From Candidatus Kuenenia stuttgartensis (GTDB lineage Bacteria; Planctomycetota; GCA-002687715; CAIWVZ01): a DNA stretch of 64,000 nt. Within the stretch, counting starts at the first letter, position 1. Each line of letters begins with the position of its first letter. The notes beneath the pieces were generated by a model, which saw only the letters and a list, made by a program, of their open reading frames with translations, did no database searches and had not been told where the DNA came from. Positions 41,542 to 56,850 of this stretch are shown here, piece after piece. Both the position numbers and the translations under genes were made by a program. The stretch covers positions 37,010 to 101,009 of the forward strand of contig CAMARR010000007.1 in assembly GCA_945860915.1 (NCBI GenBank), in the 5' to 3' direction.

Positions 41542-41949
41542 ATGCAAGCACATCCCATCATGGCCCTCGTTCTGGCTAGCCTTCTCTTGTCCGTGCCTGT
41601 TCATTCGCAAATGCCATCCGACATCAAAGTCGAGGGAACTCGACTCGTCGAGTTCAAGCGCTCGAAGGGTGCTTCCCTCGCAGGCAACGACATTTCGTGG
41701 AATGTTCCTGCAAGGACATTCGAACGCCCGTTATGGACTCGACGAGGATTCACTCTCTATCTGAGCGATGGGATCGGAGTTCTCGTGCCAGCAGGGCACG
41801 ACGCACTCGCCGAACTGCGTCGCCGGGGAGGGGTCGCTCTAGTCCGCGGAACGGTAAAACCTCATTCGGATGCAAAACCCGGCGAACCCGCGTACGTCGT
41901 GATCGTGCGCGATCTTAACCGCAGAAAGCTGCCGAAGCGCAAGTCCTAG
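41542..41949 (+). CDS. hypothetical secreted protein
   Basis: Signal peptide (MQAHPIMALVLASLLLSVPVHSQ). No family recognised. Confidence 0.4.
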   Translation: MQAHPIMALVLASLLLSVPVHSQMPSDIKVEGTRLVEFKRSKGASLAGNDISWNVPARTFERPLWTRRGFTLYLSDGIGVLVPAGHDALAELRRRGGVALVRGTVKPHSDAKPGEPAYVVIVRDLNRRKLPKRKS

Positions 41950-43322
41950 ACCTCCTCATATAGAGGGCCTGTGTCGACATGATGAGCACTGAGCGCCGCG
42001 GCAAGAACGTCACGGCCAACAAGCAGAGATGCTTTGTCTGGAGCCTCGAAACGCACGGTGAGGTTCGGGGTCGTATTGCTTGCGCGCACAAGAAACCAAC
42101 CTCCCGCAACACGCACGCGGGCGCCATCGATCTCCACGACTTCGTGCCTACGTTTCAGCTCCGAGCACAGCGCATCAACAATTCCAAATTTCACATCGTC
42201 TGCGCAGGGAACTTTGATTTCTGCAGTCGAAACCGACCTCGGGATGTCGTTGAAGAGGTCACTGCAATGTACGCCGGGCGAGTCCATCAGCTTGAGAACC
42301 ATCAACGCTCCATAGAGCGAATCGTCTATCGGGAGATAATCGCGGTTGAAAACGATGTGGCCGGAGAGTTCGCCCCCGAGCACGGCGTCAAGCTCCTTGA
42401 TATCACGCTTCAGAAGCGAGTGTCCAGTCTTCCCCATGACGGGTATCCCGCCGCACTTTCGCACCCAGTCTTCGAGAAAGTCGCCGCATTTCACATCGTA
42501 TCGAATGACGCCAGCGGGATACGTTTTCAGCATGGCCTTAGCAAATATCGCGACGAGCCAATCCGCGGAGATCTTCTGGCCGCGCTCATCGATGACCCCG
42601 ACACGATCTCCATCGCCATCAAATCCAAGACCAAGATCCGCCCGCGTCTCGACGACCTTCGACATGAGGTCTTTCATGTATTTCGGGACCTCGGGATCCG
42701 GCAGATGATTCGGGAAATCTCCGTCCGGATTGCAGTACAAGGGAATCGTGTCGATGCCAAGTCGGTTGAAGGCATCAAGAACCGTCGGTCCCATCACGCC
42801 ATTTCCGCAATCAACGGCTACGCGGAATTTCCTCGTGAATCGGAAGCGCGAGCAAACATCCTCGAGGTAACGATCCATGTAAGCGACCGCGTCGACACGC
42901 CCAGTACCCGCAAGGAGATCACGCCCGTGTGCCTCAAGGTTCAGACTCCGTATCGCATCTCCGTGGAGACCGCTGGTACCTAGGCAACATTTCAATCCGT
43001 TGTCGGGCTTGGGATTGTGGCTTCCAGTCACCATCACGCAACCACCCGCACGGAGCCTGTGAACCGCGTGGTACGTCACCGGTGTGGGCGCCACCCCGAT
43101 GTCGAACACTGTCAGCCCCGTTGAAGCGAGGCCTTCGGCAACGGCATGAGCAAGCATCGGCGATGTATGGCGCACATCTCGACCAACCACTGCATTCGTG
43201 GCGCCGCCACGGACAATTCGACTTCCGAGTGCCTTGCCTACGCCGCGAGCCACTTCCGCGGAAAGTGGCACCGGTGACTTGCCTCGAATGTCGTACTCTC
43301 GGAAAAGATTCGGGTCGAACAT
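41946..43322 (-). CDS. phosphomannomutase/phosphoglucomutase
   Basis: Alpha-D-phosphohexomutase active-site loop TGSHNP plus Mg-binding and sugar-binding domains. Confidence 0.9.
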   Translation of the reverse strand: MFDPNLFREYDIRGKSPVPLSAEVARGVGKALGSRIVRGGATNAVVGRDVRHTSPMLAHAVAEGLASTGLTVFDIGVAPTPVTYHAVHRLRAGGCVMVTGSHNPKPDNGLKCCLGTSGLHGDAIRSLNLEAHGRDLLAGTGRVDAVAYMDRYLEDVCSRFRFTRKFRVAVDCGNGVMGPTVLDAFNRLGIDTIPLYCNPDGDFPNHLPDPEVPKYMKDLMSKVVETRADLGLGFDGDGDRVGVIDERGQKISADWLVAIFAKAMLKTYPAGVIRYDVKCGDFLEDWVRKCGGIPVMGKTGHSLLKRDIKELDAVLGGELSGHIVFNRDYLPIDDSLYGALMVLKLMDSPGVHCSDLFNDIPRSVSTAEIKVPCADDVKFGIVDALCSELKRRHEVVEIDGARVRVAGGWFLVRASNTTPNLTVRFEAPDKASLLVGRDVLAAALSAHHVDTGPLYEEV

Positions 43323-43369
43323 GCCTCAACCATAGCGACACGCCGACCGTTCGTCGCTAGAATCAGGCC

Positions 43370-44938
43370 ATGAGCATGCCGTTTTCTATCGCCTTCGTGA
43401 TTCTCTTTGCCGGGGTCCCCCTCGTCGCCCAAGACAGTCGCCCTGCTTCACATCCATCGACCGTGAGAGAGGTCGCGATCCTGCACACGAACGACATCCA
43501 TGGAACAATCAGGGCAATGCCTGATCCCCGCTCGCGCGAGGGTACCCCCAAGTTGGTGGGCGGCATTCAAGAACTCTGCGCGGCAATCGATGACGAACGG
43601 TTCAAGTCCCCGAACAACCTGCTCCTCGACGCCGGCGATTGGTACCAGGGCACGCCCGAAGGGACCCTGTCAAAAGGGCTTTGCTCCGTCGAGCTCATGA
43701 ATGCCATCGGATTCGATGCGGCTGTCTTGGGAAATCACGATTTCGACAATGGGGCATCCAATGTCGACACCCTCCTAGGGGTAGCCAGGTTCCCCGTGTT
43801 TGGGGTCAACATCATGGTCCCACCCGGTGCAAGTAAGCCTCCGTACCTCGAGCGCATCACACCAGGGAAGTTATTCATTACAAACGGAGTGAAGATCTTC
43901 GTAGACGGCATTCTGACGGAAGAAGCGCCACGACTCCTGAATCCTGGCGCAATGGGTGGAGCGCTTGTGGAGGCGGAAATCACCGGCGCGCAGCGTGCGG
44001 TTTCCCGCGCGCGGCAGGCGGGTGCCGAGGCACTTGTGCTTGTCAACCACGTTGGAAAAGACCGGCACTTGGTGATTGGTCGTGACGTTCAAGGCATCGA
44101 CGTCCTCATTGGCGGACACAACCACCGAGACGTTATGGATGAGCCCGTGATCATCCCCTCCACTGGGACCTTGATTGCTCAAGCTGCACCCAACGCCGGC
44201 GCGCTCGGAGTCGTTACCTTCGGCTTCGACACGGTCACCCGCAAAGTCGCCTGGAAAAAGAGCCGCCTTCGCCGAGTCGTTGGCGACCCGAGTCTGTCCA
44301 TTCCACGGCTTAAGCCCATCATCGACCTACACGAGAAGGCGGTCGCCGAGAACATGGATCGTCGGGTAGCCGAAGCCCCCGTAGCCATTCTCCGCAGTTC
44401 CGACCTCCGGCGGCCAACGCCTCTCGGCAACCTGCTTACAGAACAAATGCTGGCTGTTTCTGAAGCAGATATCGCTGTTCACAACATCAACGGGATTCGT
44501 GCAGATCTTCCAGCCGGGACGATCCGAGTCCGAGATCTTTTCATGGTCTCCCCATTCGGAAACACGGTCGTCACCGTGAAACTCCCTGGAAAGCACATTC
44601 GAGCACTCGTGGAACGTCACCTCGCCAATCCATCGCGGGGATTTGTTTTCCGGGGCATCACTACGGTATGGCGAGAGTCCGATGGACGCCGCGAGATCGT
44701 CTCGATCATGCACGATGGCAAGGACCTCGACGACGAGCGTCAGTATTCAGTCGTAACAACTGACTATTTGGCGAACGCAGCTGACGGCGCCTCGCCATTT
44801 TCTGCGGCCAGAGAGCGACGTGACCTCGGTATGACGCTGTTGGATGTTTCGATACGCAAGTGTCAGGAGGCTGGACGGCTGAACATTGACCTCGATGCGC
44901 AATGGGTGGAAGCGCCGAAGAAGCCCACTCAGCCGTGA
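43370..44938 (+). CDS. secreted bifunctional metallophosphatase/5'-nucleotidase (UshA-like)
   Basis: Signal peptide, calcineurin-like motifs (ILHTNDIHG, GNHDFDNG), 5'-nucleotidase C-terminal domain. Confidence 0.85.
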   Translation: MSMPFSIAFVILFAGVPLVAQDSRPASHPSTVREVAILHTNDIHGTIRAMPDPRSREGTPKLVGGIQELCAAIDDERFKSPNNLLLDAGDWYQGTPEGTLSKGLCSVELMNAIGFDAAVLGNHDFDNGASNVDTLLGVARFPVFGVNIMVPPGASKPPYLERITPGKLFITNGVKIFVDGILTEEAPRLLNPGAMGGALVEAEITGAQRAVSRARQAGAEALVLVNHVGKDRHLVIGRDVQGIDVLIGGHNHRDVMDEPVIIPSTGTLIAQAAPNAGALGVVTFGFDTVTRKVAWKKSRLRRVVGDPSLSIPRLKPIIDLHEKAVAENMDRRVAEAPVAILRSSDLRRPTPLGNLLTEQMLAVSEADIAVHNINGIRADLPAGTIRVRDLFMVSPFGNTVVTVKLPGKHIRALVERHLANPSRGFVFRGITTVWRESDGRREIVSIMHDGKDLDDERQYSVVTTDYLANAADGASPFSAARERRDLGMTLLDVSIRKCQEAGRLNIDLDAQWVEAPKKPTQP

Positions 44939-46221
44939 TGGAGCGACTCCACTCGTTCCTCGGCACCCTAGCCATCCTAGGGATCGCTTGGGCACTATGT
45001 CCGAAATCACGTCGGCGTCACGTCAACTATCGAACGCTGTTGTTCGGCCTCGGCCTGCTTTGGGTTTGCGCGTTGCTCGTGCTTATGACGCCGATCAAGA
45101 GCGTGTTCCAGTCGGCTCAACATGGCGTTGATACGCTCATGAGTTTCTGTGATGCAGGAACGGAGTTCGTCTTCGGCAAGGAACTGGTCAACCCCAATGG
45201 AAAACTGGGATTCGTATTCTTAGTGCGAGCACTGCCGCCGATCCTCTTTTTTTCCGCGATCATGTCGGTGCTCTACTACCTCCGTGTTCTGCCCATGATC
45301 GTTCGGTTCCTTGGCCGCACTCTCTCGTCAGTACTTGGCACAAGCGGCGCAGAGTCATTCTCCACGGCTGCGGACATTTTCGTTGGTCAAACGGAGGCTC
45401 CGCTCACCATCCGCCCCTACCTAGCGAAGGCGACACGATCCGAGATTCATGCGTGCATGACCGCAGGATTCGCAACAACGGCGGGCGCAGTGCTTGTTAC
45501 CTACGCGACGATGCTGAAGTCTCTTGTCCCTGGCATCGCAGGGCATCTGATCGTATGCAGCGTACTCTGTGCTCCGGCCTCACTGATCATTGCAAAACTG
45601 ATGTACCCTGAAGATTCAACGCCTGAAACCGCTGGCAAGACGGATCTCGAGTTGCCTCGAACGTCCGTCAACCTCGTCGATGCCATCACATCAGGGACAA
45701 CTGACGGGCTTCGTCTAGCCGTCAACGTTGCGGCCATGTTGATCGTTTTCATCGCGATGACTGCGCTCCTTGATGCGGGACTCATGGGCCTGTCAAAGTG
45801 GTTGGCGTCGCTAGTTGGAGACGGGGGTGGCTTGATACCTCCCGAAGGATGGTCGCTCGCAGGACTCCTTGGGATCATTTTCCGCCCACTCGTCTGGTTG
45901 CTTGGCATCGCCCCCGGCGACGTGCCCCTCGCCGCAAGTCTCATCGGGAAAAAGACTGTTCTCAACGAGTGGATCGCATACCGCGATATGGCCACCACTC
46001 TCGCCGACAATCCGAGCGCCCTATCCGAGCGAGGCCGACTCATCATGTCCTACGCCCTATGCGGCTTCGCCAACTTTGCCAGCATCGGAATTCAGATCGG
46101 TGGTTACTCTGCTCTCGAGCCTTCGCGGAGAAGTGACTTCGCGTCCCTTGCCGTTCGAGCCATGTTCGGTGGACTCCTAACCACTTGTTTGGTTGCCGCC
46201 GTCGTCGGCGTTCTGACGTGA
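44938..46221 (+). CDS. nupC: NupC/NupG family concentrative nucleoside transporter
   Basis: CNT-family polytopic membrane protein, 427 aa. ATG overlaps the ushA-like stop. Confidence 0.85.
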   Translation: MERLHSFLGTLAILGIAWALCPKSRRRHVNYRTLLFGLGLLWVCALLVLMTPIKSVFQSAQHGVDTLMSFCDAGTEFVFGKELVNPNGKLGFVFLVRALPPILFFSAIMSVLYYLRVLPMIVRFLGRTLSSVLGTSGAESFSTAADIFVGQTEAPLTIRPYLAKATRSEIHACMTAGFATTAGAVLVTYATMLKSLVPGIAGHLIVCSVLCAPASLIIAKLMYPEDSTPETAGKTDLELPRTSVNLVDAITSGTTDGLRLAVNVAAMLIVFIAMTALLDAGLMGLSKWLASLVGDGGGLIPPEGWSLAGLLGIIFRPLVWLLGIAPGDVPLAASLIGKKTVLNEWIAYRDMATTLADNPSALSERGRLIMSYALCGFANFASIGIQIGGYSALEPSRRSDFASLAVRAMFGGLLTTCLVAAVVGVLT

Positions 46222-47222
46222 GCTCCTTCGATTCCCATCCGAAGGTGGAGCTTCACCTTCACCTAGATGGCGCCCTTCGGACGGCAACACTCTTCGACAT
46301 GGCAACCACCTTCGGCCTGTCCATGCCTCATGGCGGGATTGAGGCCTTTGACTCATTGGTTCGCGCAAGTCCCGACTGCACCTCACTTGAGCAGTTTCTG
46401 AAGCCATTTGACGTGATCGCGCCCATCCTCTCGCACCCGGACACGCTGATTCGGGCCACGAGGGAGGTCATCGAAGACTTGCATGCGCAACACGTTATCC
46501 ATGCTGAGCTTCGATTTGCGGCTAGCCTCATGACGGGACCAAAGCGCCCTCTCGAAGCCGTCGTCGAGGAAGCTCTGACCGGCCTTCATCAAGGAACTTC
46601 GCAAACCGGGATGTCCGCCGGCATCATCCTGTGCGTGTTTCGAATTGGAAGTGTAGACGAGGCACTCCACACCGCGCGGGTCGCTGCGCGTTATCGAGAT
46701 CGTGGCGTTGTCGGAATCGACCTTGCCGGCCCCGAGGCGGCCCCTGCACGACCCTACTATGAAGCATTCCGTCTCGCACGAGATGCGGGGCTTGGCATCA
46801 CGTTGCATGCTGGAGAAGCATGTGGCCCCGAGAACATCCGTGAGGCTATTGACCTGTTCGGTGCCACTCGAATCGGTCACGGGCTAACGCTCGAGCGAGA
46901 CTTAAGACTCATGCGCCAAGTCATAGATCAAGACATCGCCATCGAGTCCTGTCCCACCAGCAATATTCACACCGGCCAAATTCGATCACTCGCCGAGCAT
47001 CCATTTCGTCGCTATTTAGATGCAGGCGTTGCAATCACGCTTTCCACCGACGACCCGTCGCTCTCTCGCATCACACTCAACGGTGAATGGGAGAATTGCA
47101 GGCGCGCGTTTGGACTTGACGCAATGGACTTCGATAGAATCAATGAGAATGCGATTCGTCATGCCTTCATCCCTGCATCCGAGAAAGCGCGCTTCGCCAA
47201 GCGCCTTGAAAGACGCCCATGA
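46218..47222 (+). CDS. add: adenosine deaminase
   Basis: Metal-binding HxH (VELHLHLDG) and SLSTDDP motif. GTG start overlaps the nupC stop. Confidence 0.85.
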   Translation: MSSFDSHPKVELHLHLDGALRTATLFDMATTFGLSMPHGGIEAFDSLVRASPDCTSLEQFLKPFDVIAPILSHPDTLIRATREVIEDLHAQHVIHAELRFAASLMTGPKRPLEAVVEEALTGLHQGTSQTGMSAGIILCVFRIGSVDEALHTARVAARYRDRGVVGIDLAGPEAAPARPYYEAFRLARDAGLGITLHAGEACGPENIREAIDLFGATRIGHGLTLERDLRLMRQVIDQDIAIESCPTSNIHTGQIRSLAEHPFRRYLDAGVAITLSTDDPSLSRITLNGEWENCRRAFGLDAMDFDRINENAIRHAFIPASEKARFAKRLERRP

Positions 47223-47605
47223 CTCCTGATGAACTTGTCCAGCTCGCAGCCAAGGCTCGAAAGTTGGCGTACGCGCCATACTCCCACTACAAAGTGGGTG
47301 CCGCCATCCTGGCAAACGATGGACGTGTTTTCACCGGCTGCAATGTTGAAAACGCTTCATTTGGCCTCACCTGCTGTGCAGAACGAACGGCCGTGTTCTC
47401 CGCAGTTGCTGCAGGAGCGAAGAAATTCGCAGCGATTGCCATTGTGACTTCCAACGGTGGATCACCGTGCGGAGCGTGTCGACAAGTGCTCCGCGAATTC
47501 GGAACGTCTACGCTCGTCATCATGTCCCGACCAAAAGGACGACCAACCGCAGCCTTGCTCGGGGACCTGCTTCCGGGATCTTTCGGACCGGAGCAACTGC
47601 GATGA
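47219..47605 (+). CDS. cdd: cytidine deaminase
   Basis: Zinc motif CAERTA ... PCGACRQ. 128 aa. Confidence 0.9.
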   Translation: MTPDELVQLAAKARKLAYAPYSHYKVGAAILANDGRVFTGCNVENASFGLTCCAERTAVFSAVAAGAKKFAAIAIVTSNGGSPCGACRQVLREFGTSTLVIMSRPKGRPTAALLGDLLPGSFGPEQLR

Positions 47606-50704: not shown

Positions 50705-52351
50705 ATGACCCAGCCCGTCTCTAGGTTGCTCATAACGTTCGCGCTCCTTGTTGCACAAATTGGCGCTCAGATTGCGTTCCCGTATCCACCCCCAAGTCCC
50801 GGCAACACAACACCATGCGACATCCTCATCGCCGGGGGCACATTTGGCGGCGTTGCTGCGGCAGTCGGCGCATCGGGTCTCGACACCTGGGTCATCGAAG
50901 ACTCGGATTGGATTGGCGGACAGGTAACCTCGCAGGGCGTCTCCCCTCTCGACGAACACCGCTTTATCGAGACGTTCGGGGGCACATTCGCCTACGACAC
51001 GTTTCGAAAGCGTATTCGAGACCATTACGGCGAAAAGAACCCGGGGCGAGGATGGGTCAGCCGCCTTTGTTTCGAGCCTCGAATCGGCCTGAAGGTCCTT
51101 GAGCAACTCGCTCGGGAGTCACGTACCAAGGTCCTGCTCAACGCTCGGGTGACTGCAATCACCCGTCAGGCCGAGAAAATCACGTCTGCGACCGTGACCC
51201 TCAAAGACGGCAGCACGCGCGTGTTTAAACCGAAATTCATTCTCGATGCAACCGACCTCGGTGATATCTACCCACTCGCTGGCATTCCCTTCCGCATCGG
51301 CAGCGATGCAAAGGCCGACACCGGAGAGCCACACGCAGACACCGTTGCTAATCCGCGCCGAACTCAGAGCTTCACTTACTGTTTCGCGGTCGACTTCGTC
51401 AAGGGCAACAAGGAACTGATCAACAAACCACGCGACTACGAACGCAACCGTGACAATCAGCCCTATTCTTTGAGCATCGGCGGAGCTGAGCGGCCTCAGG
51501 TTTATCGAGTGTTCGAACACGCGAAGGGCACCGGAGGACCATTCTGGACCTATCGCACGCTGACTCCTGACATTGCGATGATCAACTGGCCCGGCAACGA
51601 CTATCGAGGAACGGAGGTTCTTCTTGCCAACCACGACGACGCAAAAAACCTCGCCTTGGGATTCTTGTACTGGCTTCAGAACGAATGCCCCCGCGATGAC
51701 GGTGGCCGTGGCTATCCTGAGATGCGGCTCCGAAAAGATGTCATGGGTACCGAGGATGGGCTCTCCATGCGCCCATACTACCGTGAAGGTCGTCGACTCA
51801 AGGCAATGACGACCATTGTCGAGCAAGACATCGTCGCAGGGGCGCATTCTAGTTCAGGGAGTTCTGCCCGAGCGGCCCTATTCGCCGATTCCGTTGGAGT
51901 CGGGTACTACCCCATTGATATTCACGTATGCCATGGGGACACCAAGGAAGAACACAGCTCTGGACTGCCCACAAAGCCGTTTCAAATTCCGCTTGGGTCC
52001 TTGATACCTATCGGTGTCACGAACGTACTTGCTGCAGGAAAATCGCTCGGTGTTACGCACGTTACAAACGGCTCATATCGCCTACACCCCGTTGAATGGA
52101 ACACAGGAGAATCAGCAGGCCGCACTGCTCGATTTTGCATCGATAAGCAGAAATCACCAATCGAAGTACGCGCGAACCCCGCCCTCATGCAAGAACTTCA
52201 ACGAAGCCTGCTCACGGATGGCGTACCAATCTTCTGGTATGTCGACTTGAAGCGCGATTCGGCGGACTGGATCGAGGCTCAGATGACAGCCGTCAAATCA
52301 GGAACTGCAGTTGATCCGACATCACTTGGACTCAAGGCGAAGGTGCAATGA
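50705..52351 (+). CDS. secreted FAD-dependent oxidoreductase (FAD_oxidored-like)
   Basis: Signal peptide followed by a dinucleotide-binding motif (ILIAGGTFGGVAAA). Confidence 0.65.
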   Translation: MTQPVSRLLITFALLVAQIGAQIAFPYPPPSPGNTTPCDILIAGGTFGGVAAAVGASGLDTWVIEDSDWIGGQVTSQGVSPLDEHRFIETFGGTFAYDTFRKRIRDHYGEKNPGRGWVSRLCFEPRIGLKVLEQLARESRTKVLLNARVTAITRQAEKITSATVTLKDGSTRVFKPKFILDATDLGDIYPLAGIPFRIGSDAKADTGEPHADTVANPRRTQSFTYCFAVDFVKGNKELINKPRDYERNRDNQPYSLSIGGAERPQVYRVFEHAKGTGGPFWTYRTLTPDIAMINWPGNDYRGTEVLLANHDDAKNLALGFLYWLQNECPRDDGGRGYPEMRLRKDVMGTEDGLSMRPYYREGRRLKAMTTIVEQDIVAGAHSSSGSSARAALFADSVGVGYYPIDIHVCHGDTKEEHSSGLPTKPFQIPLGSLIPIGVTNVLAAGKSLGVTHVTNGSYRLHPVEWNTGESAGRTARFCIDKQKSPIEVRANPALMQELQRSLLTDGVPIFWYVDLKRDSADWIEAQMTAVKSGTAVDPTSLGLKAKVQ

Positions 52352-53171
52352 CCCATCGGGGCGCCTTACCACGTTCCTTGTCCATTCTGGCGAGGAACTG
52401 CAACGCCCCAAGTCCGACATCAATTGCGTGAGATTCAGCCTTGGCGCGTTGTCCGGCTTCGAGAAAGACGTCCGTCGCCCGATTCGCGAAAACCGCGCAA
52501 ACAGCGCCTGCGCGGCACCCGAGGAGATGCGCTAACACGAGAAGGGACGATGCCTCCATCTCAAGATTGAGGACCCCCTGATCGGCTAATTGTTTTGGCA
52601 GTTCCGAGAACCGCCCCTTGAGCACTTCATGGTCACGCCCCTGCCAGCCGTAGAAACCTGGTGCGGTCGCAGTAAGACCTACGTGGTGCCGGTGGCCGCA
52701 AGACGCGGCTGCAGACGACAACGCGAGGACAACCTCATGGTTCGCGACAGCCGGAAACCCTGGCTCGACGAAGGCTGCTGTCGTGTTCTCAAGGCGAACT
52801 GCTCCCGTTGTGATCACGAGATCGCCTGGCTTCATGTCCGCGCGCAACGCGCCGCATGTCCCGACCCTGATGATGTCCGGCGTTTCAACGCATCGGAGAA
52901 GTTCAACAACCGCGATTTCTGTGTTGTCGGGGCCCATTCCCGTCGCCATGACTGTGACGTCAAGCCCCTTCCAAATGCCCGTGAAGGTCACAAACTCACG
53001 GTGGGTTTTGGGGAACCCAGGGCGAATGGAATCGAAGCGCTTGGCAATCGCGGCCGCGCGGGCCGGGTCGCCAACAAGCAGAATCCGACGAGCCACATCT
53101 TTGGGCTTCAGGCCGATGTGATATTGCTCACCGGCAGGACCCTTCGGTCGATTGGCACGTTGCTGGCTCAT
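52332..53171 (-). CDS. nucleoside phosphorylase (PNP/UDP family; DeoD/Udp-like)
   Basis: PNP_UDP_1 fold ([26 protein letters not shown] ... [15 protein letters not shown]). Overlaps the deoC stop by 4 nt. Confidence 0.8.
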
Positions 53172-53938
53172 CCTTCTCCCCTAACGATCTTCACTCCGGC
53201 ACTCGCGCCGACGCGCGTTGCGCCGGCGGCGACCATGCGCTCGAGCGTCGCGCGATCCTTGACGCCTCCGGAAGCCTTCACGCCGAGAGAAGGACCCACT
53301 TCGGAGCGCATGAGAGCGATATCAGCAACGGTCGCACCGCCGGTTGAAAACCCGGTGGAAGTCTTGACGAAATCAGCGCCGGCCTTGACAGAGAGTCGAC
53401 ACGCACGGCGTTTCTCATCATCAGTCAGAAGGCACGTTTCCAAAATCACTTTGACTGTGATTCCCGCACGGCGCGCTGCGGTAACGGCCTCGATATCCCT
53501 AAGGACATCGTCATCCCGATTGGACTTGAGTAGGCCGATGGCGATGACCATGTCAATCTCGGTCGCCCCAAGTTCAATAGCCAATCGTGTCTCAGTGGCC
53601 TTCACGGCCGCCAATGTCGCGCCCAACGGGAATCCAACGACGGTGCACGTTTTAACGCCTGTGCCCGTGAGGCGGCGGGCGCATCGCTCAACCCAGATGG
53701 GATTAACACACACCGACGCAAATCGATGTTCCGCAGCCTCATCGCAAAGCCGGTCAATCTCATACTGCATAGCGTCGGGCTTGAGAATCGTGTGATCGAT
53801 CAGCGCCGCTACACTTGGAATTGCGTTCTTGGGCGATGGAGTAGTTCCGATGCGATCAGCACCCGCAACCACAAGCGCGTCGGTGACCGCATCAACCAAG
53901 CGCTCAAATGCGGCCGGATCCATGGCTCGACGGGTCAT
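53168..53938 (-). CDS. deoC: deoxyribose-phosphate aldolase
   Basis: Class I DERA. Schiff-base Lys context (FVKTSTGF) and catalytic Lys (VGVKASGG). Collinear with Thermotoga-type DERA, with about 12 extra N-terminal residues. Confidence 0.9.
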
Positions 53939-54216
53939 GTTGGTCGGCTCTCCATGTCGAGCCCGTCAACCACGGCAACGATGACTGCTTGGACAGGTGT
54001 CGACTCACTCCCGATCATCATGCGCGCGCTGCCGCCTTCCTTCAGGATGACGACGAGATCTCCTTCGCCCGAGTCCACATGATCCACGGCCACTAACGCG
54101 CGTCCCGTGGGTGTGCCATCAGGATTTACAGGCTGGGCCAAGAGCAAACGCGCCCCCGCCAATTCACCATCGGCGATGGTGGCGTATACGGCACTCTGAA
54201 TGCGCGCAAGAATCAC
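53935..54216 (-). CDS. bacterial microcompartment vertex protein, EutN/CcmL/PduN family (BMC-P), copy 3
   Basis: [30 protein letters not shown] ... [17 protein letters not shown] ... SARMMIG ... AVIVAVVD matches the Pfam PF03319 pattern. GTG start overlaps the previous stop (GTGA). Confidence 0.78.
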
Positions 54217-54503
54217 CGAACGTCTCCGGGTAGAGGAAGTCGGTCTAGGATCGCAATGACTGACGCATCCGTCGCCACGAGATCCGTGGCATAGAGCCGC
54301 TTCCATGGAATCGCAGCCTCGCTTGCTGTCACATAAAGGACAATTTGCCCGGGACCTGCTCCAACTGTGTCAGTGGCGGCGATGACAGCACCATGCGGCG
54401 CTCCGGCTGCATTGAGAGGCTGCAGCATCAACATGCGACCGCGTTCAAGCGCTGCTTGCTTGGCCGTTGCCCAAACGGAACCAACGACACGAGCAATTTC
54501 CAT
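54213..54503 (-). CDS. bacterial microcompartment vertex protein, EutN/CcmL/PduN family (BMC-P), copy 2
   Basis: MEIARVVGSVWATAKQAALERGRMLMLQPLN ... ATDTVGAGPGQIVLYVTASEAA ... ASVIAILD is the canonical BMC-P pattern. 96 aa. Confidence 0.85.
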   Translation of the reverse strand: MEIARVVGSVWATAKQAALERGRMLMLQPLNAAGAPHGAVIAATDTVGAGPGQIVLYVTASEAAIPWKRLYATDLVATDASVIAILDRLPLPGDVR

Positions 54504-55207
54504 CAGGAACCTTCGATGAGCGCCACACGTCGGGTGTGGCGTCCCCCTTCAAAGGCCGTGTCGAGGAATGCGTCGACGATAGCCACCATCTCTTGCTCTT
54601 TCACGATTCTCGAACCAAGGCACAGGACGTTCGCGTCATTGTGGCTTCGAGCGGAGATGGCCTCGGCTACGACGGCGCAAGGCGCCGCGCGGACACCAGC
54701 ATGCCGGTTGCATGCCATCGCCGAAGCGACACCGGACCCATCAATGACAACAGCGCGTGCAACTCTTCCGGAAACTACCGCAAAGGCCGCTTGGTGGGCA
54801 AAGTCCGGCCAATCGACGGCTTCCGTCGAATGTGTTCCAAGATCGATGACCGTAATTCCTTTTGAAACAAGCAGAGGCTTCAGCGCCTCCTTGGCAGCGA
54901 ATCCTCCGTGATCTGATGCCACGGCAAGCAGATTCTTCACGGGCAATGGCCCGGCCTTCATGGCGACGCCGAGACGGTCAGCCGTCTCCCGCGCCAGCGG
55001 CGTCACCAATGAACCATCCGGCACTATTACAGGACTTCGAGCGGTGTACGCCGCCAAGACATCGGCCTCTGTTACGAGTAGACGTTGACGCCTATCTGCG
55101 GCGTCATCGAAACGCCTCCATCCGGCCACGCTCGCGGGCATCGAGGTCGGAGCGAACTTCTCGACAAGCGCGTCGCGGACGGCACGGCGGATCGCTTCAC
55201 GATCCAT
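54503..55207 (-). CDS. ribose-5-phosphate isomerase B (RpiB/LacA/LacB family) with about 85-aa N-terminal extension
   Basis: The C-terminal 149 aa align along the whole of E. coli RpiB (SDHGGF ... VIDGSGVASAMACN ... SHNDANVL ... FEGGRH). The N-terminal 85 aa have no RpiB counterpart and begin with an amphipathic helix. Confidence 0.8.
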   Translation of the reverse strand: MDREAIRRAVRDALVEKFAPTSMPASVAGWRRFDDAADRRQRLLVTEADVLAAYTARSPVIVPDGSLVTPLARETADRLGVAMKAGPLPVKNLLAVASDHGGFAAKEALKPLLVSKGITVIDLGTHSTEAVDWPDFAHQAAFAVVSGRVARAVVIDGSGVASAMACNRHAGVRAAPCAVVAEAISARSHNDANVLCLGSRIVKEQEMVAIVDAFLDTAFEGGRHTRRVALIEGS

Positions 55208-55529
55208 CCGGCTGTACTCCTAGATCAGTAACGCCCATCCTGTCAAACACTGCCCAATCACGGTCGACGATTTCTAGATCATCGACGATCGCAACGATCA
55301 CGGCATCAACCGCCTTATCCTTGGTGGCCTCCGTCTGACGTGCGCTCGACCCCTGAGTGACGAGCACAGTTTCACCCATCCCCGCGCCAATGACGTCGAC
55401 GGCGATCACGAACCCATCCCCCAGCGTTCGATCGGGCTTCAGCGCGCGTACAATCATCCACTTGAACCCCGAGACACGGGGATCTTTGCGGGTGGCCCAC
55501 ACGGTTCCTACAACTCTTCCAAGCAGCAT
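55197..55529 (-). CDS. bacterial microcompartment vertex protein, EutN/CcmL/PduN family (BMC-P), copy 1
   Basis: MLLGRVVGTVWATRKDPRVSGFKWMIVRAL ... VDVIGAGMGETVLVTQGSSARQ ... AVIVAIVDDLE. Start taken at the internal Met. Confidence 0.8.
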   Translation of the reverse strand: MLLGRVVGTVWATRKDPRVSGFKWMIVRALKPDRTLGDGFVIAVDVIGAGMGETVLVTQGSSARQTEATKDKAVDAVIVAIVDDLEIVDRDWAVFDRMGVTDLGVQPDGS

Positions 55530-55594
55530 GTTGTTTGACGGCTTGCGCCGGCCTTCCAAAGATAGAGGATAGTGCACGGTCCGCAAGCGTCCCC

Positions 55595-56287
55595 ATGAAG
55601 TCATTCCCCCGCGATCTTCTCGGTTCCTCTCGGCTCATCCTCCTCGCGATGGCCGTCTTCGCGTGGCTTTGCAAGGGGGTGCCCAACTTCATGCAAGGCG
55701 CCCCAGAAATCGTCGTGGATATGGCTGATTACTGCGGTGAGTTTGCGCCTCGGCTCCTAGCTGGGTCAGCAACCGTAGCCGGCGTCATTCACTTGCGCGG
55801 CGTTGAGCGATGGCAGTCACTGATCATCCCTTTGACGTTGCTCTTGGCCCTATTCGGGCTGCATCTTCGCGCCATTAACGCTCCAAACGATGTGGGCCAG
55901 CTCGAAGACCTTGCGACCACGGTCCTTACTCTGGCTTTCCCTTTCGCTGTTCTGATTCCTCTCGCCCGACGGGGCCCCGGATGGATAGGTTCCTTCGTCG
56001 TTTCTGCCCTTTGCTTTGGCATCGGACTGGCAATGGCATTCACTCGGCCGAACCGAGCAGCGTCGTACCTGAGTTCCGGCCTGGGCCTTCCCCCAACCGG
56101 AATCTACGCGCCACTGGCGGTCGCGATTTTGGCCGCGTTACTCCCGCTGGCACTCTCTCGAAGGTACGGACTCACGGTCGCAATTGCGACGTTTGCGTCG
56201 GCGCTACTGCCCCCTCTATGGGGCGACGGAGTTCGGCTTGCAATCTGCGTTATAGGAATGGCGCTCAGCTCAGCGCCGACGATCTAG
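55595..56287 (+). CDS. hypothetical polytopic membrane protein
   Basis: About 6 hydrophobic helices. It is the only long ORF in an otherwise gene-free 0.7-kb segment between the BMC-P operon and the BFN gene. Start taken at MKSFPRD. Could be an antisense artefact. Confidence 0.4.
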   Translation: MKSFPRDLLGSSRLILLAMAVFAWLCKGVPNFMQGAPEIVVDMADYCGEFAPRLLAGSATVAGVIHLRGVERWQSLIIPLTLLLALFGLHLRAINAPNDVGQLEDLATTVLTLAFPFAVLIPLARRGPGWIGSFVVSALCFGIGLAMAFTRPNRAASYLSSGLGLPPTGIYAPLAVAILAALLPLALSRRYGLTVAIATFASALLPPLWGDGVRLAICVIGMALSSAPTI

Positions 56288-56850
56288 GATTTCTCGTCGT
56301 CTGACGACTCATCAGAGAATTCGTCGTCGTCGAGCTCATCATCATCATCTTCGTCGTCGCTTTCCGCTCCGTCATCTTCCTCGTCCGCCTCGTCTCCATC
56401 CTTACTGTCAAGCATCGCCAGTTGCTCAGTGAAATCCTCCACGGTCTCAAGAACGCTCGTTGTGACCATAAGAGGAACTCCCCACTTCAACGCGAAAACC
56501 ATAGCGTCAGAAGCACGGGTATCGAGTCTTACCTCATTGCGATGCGAGTCAAGCTGTTGGCTCAGAATCAACGACGCACAATAGACTCCATTGTGAACAC
56601 TTGAGATCACAGCCCGCGTTACTCCGATGTCGAAACCGCGCAGAGCAAATTCCATAAGATCATGGGTCATCGGTCGATCTGCTCTGACTTTTCTGAGCTC
56701 ACGATCGATTGCCGCCCCTTCTACCTGACCGACGAAGATGACGAAGAGTTTGGTCGGATGCTTGATTGCAACGCCCACGGTCCCGCTTTCGCGAAAAACC
56801 AGAACGCGGTCGATCGATACCTCGACTGGTACGTTGGGATCAGTTGCCAT
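56284..56850 (-). CDS. bifunctional nuclease (BFN/DUF151) domain protein with poly-acidic C-terminal tail
   Basis: BFN-domain pattern (RPMTHDLMEFAL ... RASDAMVFAL) followed by about 45 residues of almost only Asp/Glu/Ser. Confidence 0.65.
   Translation of the reverse strand: MATDPNVPVEVSIDRVLVFRESGTVGVAIKHPTKLFVIFVGQVEGAAIDRELRKVRADRPMTHDLMEFALRGFDIGVTRAVISSVHNGVYCASLILSQQLDSHRNEVRLDTRASDAMVFALKWGVPLMVTTSVLETVEDFTEQLAMLDSKDGDEADEEDDGAESDDEDDDDELDDDEFSDESSDDEKS

Follow-up and report, generated by a model that had tools for sequence, protein, structure and literature searches.

What is a protein with the fold of ribose-5-phosphate isomerase B (RpiB) doing among the shell genes of a bacterial microcompartment (BMC), if an aspartate stands in place of its catalytic cysteine and some 90 residues precede its catalytic domain? 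This question is raised by a gene on the minus strand of a 64,000-nucleotide stretch of Candidatus Kuenenia stuttgartensis DNA (contig CAMARR010000007.1 of assembly GCA_945860915.1, positions 37,010 to 101,009), which is called the window below. A planctomycete source is probable, and the nearest named relatives of ThiC, at about 80% identity, come from Planctomycetota MAGs. The gene shares an operon with three genes for BMC-P pentamers (EutN/CcmL family) and with the gene for DERA. Its product is probably the RpiB-like "RPI" of an SPU-type (deoxyribose-5-phosphate) BMC, and it probably serves as a packaged adaptor and DERA partner and not as a ribose-5-phosphate (R5P) isomerase. The new point of the analysis is a 43-residue EutQ-like module hidden in the so-called linker of RPI.

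The name SPU (sugar-phosphate-utilising) for microcompartment loci that contain DeoC and RpiB dates from 2014 (PMC4207490), and a catalogue of them followed in 2021 (PMC8217296). In 2024, Dwyer, Sutter and Kerfeld described that SPU RPIs have an N-terminal encapsulation peptide (EP) followed by a linker of about 75 aa, that Cys66 is changed to Asp in all of them, that the SPU DERAs have N-terminal extensions and that the SPU loci have BMC-P triplets (PMC11585597). The purified Chloroflexi RPI was a tetramer with negligible R5P isomerase activity, and it formed a complex of roughly 1:1 with DERA; fusion proteins were also reported. The 75-aa stretch was termed an unstructured, less conserved linker, and the role of RPI was called enigmatic, as no pathway role for it was found by the authors (PMC11585597). 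A 2025 preprint on compartments of archaea, in which RPI bound shells without a predicted EP, likewise calls its role unexplored.

The open reading frame (ORF) in the window encodes 234 aa, from an ATG at 55207 to a TGA at 54503-54505. An in-frame stop lies four codons 5′ of the ATG, and the start is therefore not movable upstream; GGAG is found 9 nt before it. Pfam LacAB_rpiB matches residues 95-231 with E=7e-47 (PF02502, 159.2 bits against a cut-off of 24.7), and the scores for TIGR00689 (RpiB/LacA/LacB family; 142 against 88.3) and NF004051 (146.9 against 135) are also above their cut-offs. The alignment with the solved RpiBs of Thermotoga, Clostridium thermocellum, and E. coli is gapless and spans residues 94-231 (E about 1e-32). 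In an AlphaFold2 (AF2) model built on a 99-sequence alignment, with a mean pLDDT (the per-residue confidence score of AF2) of 89.5, the RpiB domain superposes on 3he8, 1o1x, and 2vvr with TMt 0.94-0.96 and a root-mean-square deviation (rmsd) of 0.7-1.0 Å over 141-145 columns; the first 93 residues are covered by no solved RpiB or LacAB structure in the same comparison. Thus, the RpiB identity proposed by a sequence-only reading of the window holds, but its sizes of 149 aa for the domain and 85 aa for the extension have to be changed to about 141 aa and about 90-93 aa, respectively. The 99 relatives aligned (alignment A2) share on average about 45% identity with the window protein, and its nearest relatives in species genomes about 44%.

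The likeness to the published class is close. Just as in the SPU RPI of Chloroflexi bacterium GWB2_54_36, the RpiB fold is combined with an N-terminal amphipathic EP and the Cys66-to-Asp change, while His99 is kept (H189); exactly 75 aa (residues 19-93) separate the helix from the domain; and the gene is located two genes upstream of an N-terminally extended DERA, with a BMC-P triplet and a predicted deoxyribose-5-phosphate/nucleoside context. As each sequence-level feature of the SPU RPIs is found in the window protein, the core observation of the sequence-only reading is correct but not new. There are also differences. The window locus has no BMC-H/T and no AldDh (satellite type); the protein carries a clade-specific WRRFDD motif and a Ser, not Ala, at the Thr68 position; and 43 of its own 75 residues between helix and domain, the stretch published as a linker, form a conserved module with a confidently predicted fold.

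On the minus strand the genes follow one another in the order BMC-P, RpiB-like, BMC-P, BMC-P, DERA, and PNP/UDP phosphorylase, and all five junctions overlap by 1-11 nt; they therefore constitute one translationally coupled operon. The extension of DERA is about 41 aa long, because its homology to solved DERAs begins at residue 42 (E=1e-77). A relative with 49% identity shows the same order: a bifunctional-nuclease-domain gene, BMC-P, RPI, BMC-P, BMC-P, DERA, PNP, and nucleoside genes. Cargo status had been suggested from the position of the gene between vertex genes, and this is supported by the translational coupling to three BMC-P genes and to the gene for an extended DERA as well as by the match to the published SPU RPIs.

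The replacement of the E. coli-type catalytic cysteine is confirmed. In the alignment, "ilicgtgvg" of E. coli RpiB pairs with "vvidgsgva", so that Cys66 corresponds to Asp156, and all 99 relatives have Asp at this position; no correction of the frame or the start could bring a Cys back. The position of Thr68 is taken by Ala, Val, or Met in 96/99 relatives and by Ser in 3/99, including the window protein, whose Ser158 retains the hydroxyl. The equivalents of D9, H10, H99, N100, R133, H134, and R137 are invariant in 99/99. Both residues of the isomerisation step, Cys66 and Thr68, are thus replaced, while the phosphosugar pocket and the ring-opening histidine are still under strong selection. The protein scores below the cut-offs of the E. 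coli-type rpiB equivalog TIGR01120 (131.2 against 138.65) and of TIGR02133 RPI_actino (102.8 against 168.2).

It had also been supposed that the Asp serves as a Glu/Asp base in the manner of the mycobacterial enzyme. This mechanism was rejected: in a three-way alignment, Glu75 of Mycobacterium tuberculosis RpiB (sequence verified against PDB 2vvo) pairs with Ser162 of the window protein and Ile72 of E. coli RpiB, six residues past Asp156. The mycobacterial enzyme has Gly at the Cys66 position, and Ser162 is invariant as Ser across the family of the window protein. Both E. coli RpiB/AlsB and M. tuberculosis RpiB have the same fold as the window protein (rmsd 0.8-1.3 Å) and the same phosphate-binding and ring-opening residues; unlike the former, the window protein has Asp instead of Cys66 and Ser instead of Thr68, and unlike the latter, it has no equivalent of Glu75.

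Such a pattern of lost and retained residues may be read in more than one way. In a broadened form of the sequence-only reading, which had named an altered substrate as its second option, RPI might be an active sugar-phosphate isomerase packaged as an enzyme, with Asp156 as a carboxylate base and a substrate other than R5P. Candidates are another pentose, tetrose, or triose phosphate and deoxyribose-5-phosphate itself, whose ring-opening or anomerisation would serve DERA. The invariance of Asp156 and of the binding and ring-opening residues in 99/99 relatives is hard to square with a pure scaffold; a linked reaction would fit the tight pairing with DERA, which does not depend on BMCs (34/53 Asp-type loci and 0/26 Cys-type loci in the census below); and RpiB enzymes are known as promiscuous (PMC4207490). 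Moreover, TPI is prominent in SPU1 and SPU4, RPI being less common in SPU4 and absent in SPU5, which hints at a possible functional overlap (PMC11585597). Nevertheless, an active isomerase seems rather unlikely, given the negligible R5P isomerase activity of the Chloroflexi homologue and the failure of the same authors to find a pathway role for RPI (PMC11585597), the Ala, Val, or Met at the Thr68 position of nearly all relatives, and the chemistry of deoxyribose-5-phosphate, which has no 2-OH and hence cannot undergo aldose-ketose isomerisation.

A change at both Cys66 and Thr68 would also be expected of a catalytically dead pseudoenzyme, a purely structural nucleator of the cargo core that binds no ligand, which is an option in the discussion of the 2024 paper; a homologue without R5P activity that is still able to complex with DERA fits this option too, and CcmM and the defunct AldDh of GRM loci are precedents (PMC11585597). 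What makes us give it little credence is that 7/7 pocket residues and the Asp are invariant at an average identity of about 45%, which indicates selection on the pocket, even though assembly might account for the conservation of some of them, which are located at the dimer interface. Finally, the protein might resemble LacA, a subunit that also carries Asp here and depends on the Cys of LacB (PMC11585597); it would then be the non-catalytic part of a heteromeric isomerase, with the catalytic Cys coming from a partner, and the window protein does have weak NCBIfam matches to both LacA and LacB. These matches score far under the cut-offs (76 against 164 for LacA, 81 against 234 for LacB), and the SPU homologue is a homotetramer (PMC11585597). 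The window contains no second RpiB/LacB homologue (next best tblastn hit, E=0.38); with no partner gene there, a heteromer of the LacA/LacB type was rejected and is hardly credible.

The adaptor reading depends on what precedes the RpiB domain. In the AF2 model, residues 3-18 form a helix (pLDDT about 90), and residues 23-37 are disordered (pLDDT below 50). Among the 67-68 helix-bearing relatives, positions 6/10/14/18 are hydrophobic in 97-100% and positions 3/4/7/11/16 are charged in at least 82%. The standard hydrophobic moment (100 degrees, 17-18 aa) was dropped, being no better than shuffles: for the window sequence alone, the Eisenberg moment (100 degrees, 17 residues) gives p=0.57. The moment becomes significant at 85-90 degrees (p=0.002-0.03 against shuffles), because the hydrophobic stripe recurs about every 4 residues, and these angles were used together with the position statistics of the family. 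Thus, the model and the family-wide stripe agree with the amphipathic encapsulation-type helix that had been recognised in the first 18 residues. Checked against the alternative of an integral folded domain without a free helix, this reading comes out half-way: the extension does contain a folded segment further on, but the first 18 residues still make up a separate helix on a variable, low-confidence linker (5-43 aa across the family; the second linker, in front of the RpiB domain, varies from 8 to 43 aa).

Like the canonical EPs at the N-termini of PduP, PduD, and EutC (Aussignargues et al. 2015), this helix is terminal, amphipathic, and about 16 residues long; a linker of low conservation lies between it and the catalytic domain, and the non-BMC (Cys-type) homologues do not have it. 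It differs from the canonical EPs in the stripe period of about 4, in a strongly conserved Arg ladder at positions 3/7/11, and in having a folded module for association as a second element beside it.

Within linker 1, which is disordered elsewhere, lies the WRRFDD motif (residues 30-35; 55103-55120, minus strand), which may be a short linear interaction motif. It is clade-specific, being found in 21/67 helix-bearing relatives, most of them among those closest to the window protein; P0016 is the only carrier confirmed to have the same pentamer-only operon.

The sequence-only reading had divided the extension into a stretch that starts with the helix, a Pro/Ser/Ala linker, and a further stretch. 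Its helix stands, but what follows is not a nondescript tail, as residues 43-85 form a conserved module with a predicted fold. In the AF2 model, it is a compact two-helix unit, with helices at 47-55 and 70-79 and short strands, and its pLDDT is 87-98 in the full model and 94.4 when it is modelled alone. T69 and A72 are invariant in the 99 relatives, while T46, V50, P70, R73, and A76 are conserved in at least 90%. The occupancy of the module in the alignment is 99-100% versus 69% for the helix, and its conservation level equals that of the catalytic core.

When compared with E. coli K-12 EutQ by hhalign, columns 2-45 of the module pair with EutQ residues 2-47 at 94.5% probability and E=8e-8. 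Module-bearing proteins also have NCBIfam matches that are weak but consistent: to the EutQ N-terminus (NF012001, profile positions 2-48 of 233; E=2e-7 for P0123), to the C-terminus of PduM (E=4e-5 for P0262), and to the C-terminus of TIGR02536. The functional anatomy of the EutQ N-terminus has been worked out: in Salmonella, GFP enters Eut compartments when fused to no more than EutQ residues 1-99, of which H1/H2 (residues 9-41) is the part that binds the shell (EutM/EutL) and H3/H4 (residues 62-99) the part that binds cargo EPs (PMC12487888), while EutM binding is abolished in EutQ without its first 100 residues (PMC4827028). From the homology to EutQ, we infer that residues 43-85 may dock onto shell proteins. 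The two proteins share a small two-helix element, residues 43-85 being homologous to EutQ 2-47, which a flexible linker connects, in a BMC protein, to a domain with an enzyme fold. The EutQ element continues into the EP-binding H3/H4 and the EutQ enzyme fold is a cupin, whereas in the window protein an EP-type helix precedes the module, an 8-aa linker follows it, and the enzyme domain has the RpiB fold. Literature searches for the module and for follow-ups of the SPU work returned no description of it, and the EutQ and SPU papers mention no such element on other cargo.

Two other candidates for the identity of the module were discarded. The PSBD/E3-binding domain (PF02817) matches relatives locally, at profile positions 2-21 of 36 (25.3 bits for P0122), owing to a TPLAR..A..GV resemblance; the window protein itself has no Pfam match to it, and the predicted fold of the module is α/β, whereas PSBD is all-helical. 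A Foldseek search of the PDB with the module gave no significant match (best E=0.09). The best matches were to a β-α-β-α-β sub-element of IF2/eIF5B domain III (TMq 0.75-0.83), but it is a generic small α/β unit with E of at least 0.09 and is uninformative.

The module is not restricted to RPI. In a set of 1.84 billion representatives, its profile retrieves 2,500 proteins at E<=1e-3. Their lengths lie between 45 and about 450 aa, and they have the module at the N- or C-terminus, at times repeated. Among the top 143 matches, for which Pfam domains were tallied, LacAB_rpiB is found in 28, Flavoprotein in 7, PTAC in 3, TIM, Aldolase_II, and PDU_like in 2 each, and EutQ and EutN_CcmL in 1 each. Two carriers other than RpiB are encoded in full BMC loci along with PTAC, BMC-H, BMC-P, a PduS-like protein, and AldDh. 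The first, 160 aa long, consists of a helix and two modules; the second is a flavoprotein that begins with a helix and ends with the module. Two BMC loci of Anaerolineales encode an RpiB with the helix only and, in addition, a separate protein of about 110-125 aa (L044:15501-15881 and L054:15243-15581), in which an N-terminal module is joined by a Pro/Ala linker to a C-terminal amphipathic helix. SPU6 operons have been noted to contain "hypothetical proteins", which may be these small proteins. The presence of module and helix on a separate protein where RpiB lacks the module implies that helix plus module behaves as a cassette.

Several further architectures were seen among the matches. P0125 (405 aa) combines a helix, two modules, and an Asp-type RpiB domain, P0173 (367 aa) a PduL-type PTAC and two C-terminal modules, and one pentamer (EutN/CcmL) protein in alignment A4 matches the module too. 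The giant proteins P0121 (4767 aa) and P0128 (1813 aa) have 32 and 14 partial matches, respectively, to positions 4-24 of the module profile, probably reflecting an unrelated repeat that resembles the first helix of the module.

We tentatively propose that the helix and the EutQ-H1/H2-like module together make up an unrecognised mobile shell-docking unit of SPU-type and other BMCs, in which case RPI could be the shell-cargo linker of SPU compartments, analogous to EutQ, CcmN, and CsoS2, with its tetrameric RpiB part as a sugar-phosphate-binding hub that brings in DERA and not as an isomerase. Such a mobile unit would be carried by RPI, TPI, class II aldolase, PTAC, flavoprotein, EutQ, PduM, a pentamer, or a stand-alone adaptor, and carriers without the helix may be packaged via the module alone. 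The likeness to CcmN, CsoS2, and PduB(1-37) concerns only the proposed role, that is, a multivalent bridge between shell and cargo built from short modules on flexible tethers; the window protein has no sequence relationship to them, and the role is deduced rather than observed.

Whether the extension goes together with microcompartments was addressed in a census of 80 species-genome loci and the window's own contig. Its flanks extend to 10 kb at most, and its loci lack phylogenetic independence. The module occurs in 42/53 Asp-type and 0/26 Cys-type RpiBs, N-terminal extensions of any kind are found in 0/26 Cys-type RpiBs, and DERA is encoded in the locus in the ratio already given. The module is also carried by the Chloroflexota relatives L007 and L008. 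Thus, the claim that the extension has no counterpart in stand-alone RpiB is valid for the Cys-type enzymes but not for the Asp-type ones, since 21 helix-less, module-bearing loci lie away from shell genes. The N-terminal helix tracks the microcompartment context: shell genes adjoin 12/31 helix-bearing versus 1/22 helix-less loci of the 53 Asp-type ones (Fisher p=0.008), a test weakened by nine helix calls made by eye where the helix hidden Markov model (HMM) had missed divergent EPs (seven shell-embedded RPIs, together with L029 and L086, which have no shell genes). For full 8-kb flanks only, the figures are 6/11 versus 0/13 (p=0.003).

A number of module-bearing, helix-less Asp-type RpiBs, mostly from Acidobacteriota, are encoded beside DERA with no shell gene within 10 kb (L016, L019, L021, L024, L026, L027, L068, L077, L083, L086, and others), which means that the RpiB(Asp)-DERA pair exists beyond shell-adjacent loci. 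In total, 22/40 Asp-type loci without shell genes still contain DERA. Along with the module-bearing forms in loci without BMC genes and the lack of a hexamer gene in 64 kb, this is what one would expect if RPI were a cytosolic DERA partner or regulator that is not encapsulated at all, its helix and module serving oligomerisation or another interaction and the BMC-P genes being adjacent incidentally or having a non-shell pentamer role. We consider this very improbable in the case of the window protein. Its gene is interleaved with three BMC-P genes via overlapping stop and start codons, and the synteny is kept at 49% identity; helix-less forms adjoin shell genes in just one locus of the 22; the other carriers of the module are BMC proteins in BMC loci; and DERA is also extended.

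The weakness of the Fisher test is not the only point that counts against a packaged adaptor with a shell-docking module. In the 64-kb window, tblastn with canonical and locus-derived sequences and iterated HMMs detected no BMC-H, BMC-T, AldDh, PTAC, or PduS. A complete compartment is therefore assumed, not seen, and the locus is a satellite one by the definition of PMC8217296, so that the remaining shell must be encoded elsewhere. No shell gene is present in the sampled flanks of 19 helix-bearing relatives. Seven shell-embedded RPIs are without the module, and hence the module is not needed for packaging. In L005, a module-bearing, helix-less Asp-type RpiB is encoded beside malic enzyme and PEPCK in a locus without BMC genes; the role of the module may thus not be specific to microcompartments. 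Nor is the module confined to shell-adjacent loci, as exemplified by the Gemmatimonadales protein P0067 with its neighbours malic enzyme and PEPCK. The EutQ homology of the window module rests on the profile, because its own sequence matches the NCBIfam EutQ model only at E=0.034. The N-terminal helix may pack on the body of the protein. Finally, the invariant Asp156 and the intact pocket argue that some chemistry or specific ligand binding persists.

On balance, a packaged adaptor that partners DERA is the reading we favour; this role is proposed because the one homologue with a known biochemistry is tetrameric, forms a 1:1 complex with DERA, and fails to isomerise R5P. In the putative mechanism, residues 3-18 would act as an encapsulation helix on a flexible tether, the EutQ H1/H2-like module would dock on shell proteins, and the RpiB domain would bind DERA and probably a sugar phosphate, with no R5P isomerisation. 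Two association elements per subunit, the helix and the module, amount to eight per tetramer. RPI would in this way recruit DERA into the compartment, where deoxyribose-5-phosphate from the neighbouring nucleoside pathway would be cleaved to acetaldehyde and glyceraldehyde 3-phosphate. The anatomy of the protein, its conservation and homologies, the gene context, and the context statistics are results of the present analysis. The EP assignment for the class, the absence of R5P activity, the DERA complex, the tetramer, and the shell binding by EutQ H1/H2 are taken from the literature, while the shell binding by the module, the adaptor role, and the ligand are deduced here. The module links SPU RPI to the shell-binding end of EutQ and to PduM, and the same module is found on many cargo enzymes. 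With an adaptor or docking protein, it offers a concrete and testable candidate answer to the acknowledged question of the role of RPI in SPU compartments, and it is a candidate general targeting tag for engineering.

The surroundings of the operon suit such a pathway. The genes at 41946-47605, together with the phosphorylase of the operon, cover nucleoside release, uptake, deamination, and phosphorolysis, and the PGM/PMM-family mutase is a candidate phosphopentomutase for the step from deoxyribose-1-phosphate to deoxyribose-5-phosphate. This gene set is also syntenic in the relative with 49% identity. A route from nucleosides to deoxyribose-5-phosphate has been proposed for SPU compartments (PMC8217296) and likewise for archaeal SPU-like compartments. 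The nucleoside uptake, deamination, and phosphorolysis genes and the candidate mutase beside a packaged aldolase support the DNA-scavenging role proposed for these organelles. Coordinates of all these features are collected in Table 1.

Table 1. Features of the RpiB-like protein, its operon, and the nearby nucleoside genes (positions in the window; residue numbers refer to the 234-aa protein).
Feature	Position	Strand	Basis
RpiB-like (SPU-type "RPI") gene, 234 aa, ATG start, TGA stop	54503..55207	-	ORF, Pfam, NCBIfam, alignment to solved RpiBs
Amphipathic encapsulation-peptide-type helix, residues 3-18 (REAIRRAVRDALVEKF)	55154..55201	-	AF2, family stripe, association with shell genes
Flexible linker 1, residues 19-42	55082..55153	-	pLDDT below 50 at 23-37
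Conserved β-α-β-β-α-β module (VTEADV...TPLAR..A..LGV), residues 43-85	54953..55081	-	conservation, AF2, hhalign, NCBIfam
Short linker 2, residues 86-93	54929..54952	-	alignment
RpiB-fold domain, residues 94-234; D99, H100, H189, N190, R223, H224, R227 kept	54506..54928	-	Pfam, alignments, superposition
Asp156 codon (E. coli Cys66 position)	54740..54742	-	alignment
Ser158 codon (Thr68 position)	54734-54736	-	alignment
BMC-P (EutN/CcmL) gene 1; stop overlaps RpiB-like start by 11 nt	55197..55577	-	Pfam (E=5e-27), gene call
BMC-P gene 2; ATG shares one base with RpiB-like TGA (TGATG)	54213..54503	-	Pfam, gene call
BMC-P gene 3; GTG start as called	53935..54216	-	Pfam, gene call
DERA (DeoC); N-terminal extension of about 41 aa with amphipathic-looking helix; both catalytic Lys motifs	53168..53938	-	Pfam
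PNP/UDP-family nucleoside phosphorylase at the end of the operon; overlaps DERA (ATGA)	52332..53171	-	Pfam, junction
PGM/PMM-family mutase	41946-43322	-	gene call
5′-nucleotidase	43370-44938	+	gene call
CNT nucleoside transporter	44902-46221	+	gene call
Adenosine deaminase	46185-47222	+	gene call
Cytidine deaminase	47219-47605	+	gene call

A scan of the operon for promoters and terminators gave results at or below chance. The product of BMC-P gene 1 (55197-55604, minus strand) goes beyond the 83-residue EutN/CcmL domain at both ends, by about 16-25 aa at the N-terminus, according to the start codon, and by about 27 aa at the C-terminus, while the other two pentamers are near minimal length. 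Upstream of this gene, a 250-aa ORF with many hydrophobic segments and no Pfam match (55535-56287, plus strand) separates it from the bifunctional-nuclease-domain gene; a gene without a Pfam match is called at this position both in the window contig and in the 49%-identical relative. The bifunctional-nuclease-domain protein itself (56284-56850, minus strand), encoded upstream of the operon, has a long, highly acidic C-terminal tail; its position is also occupied in the relative, and the gene could relate to DNA scavenging.

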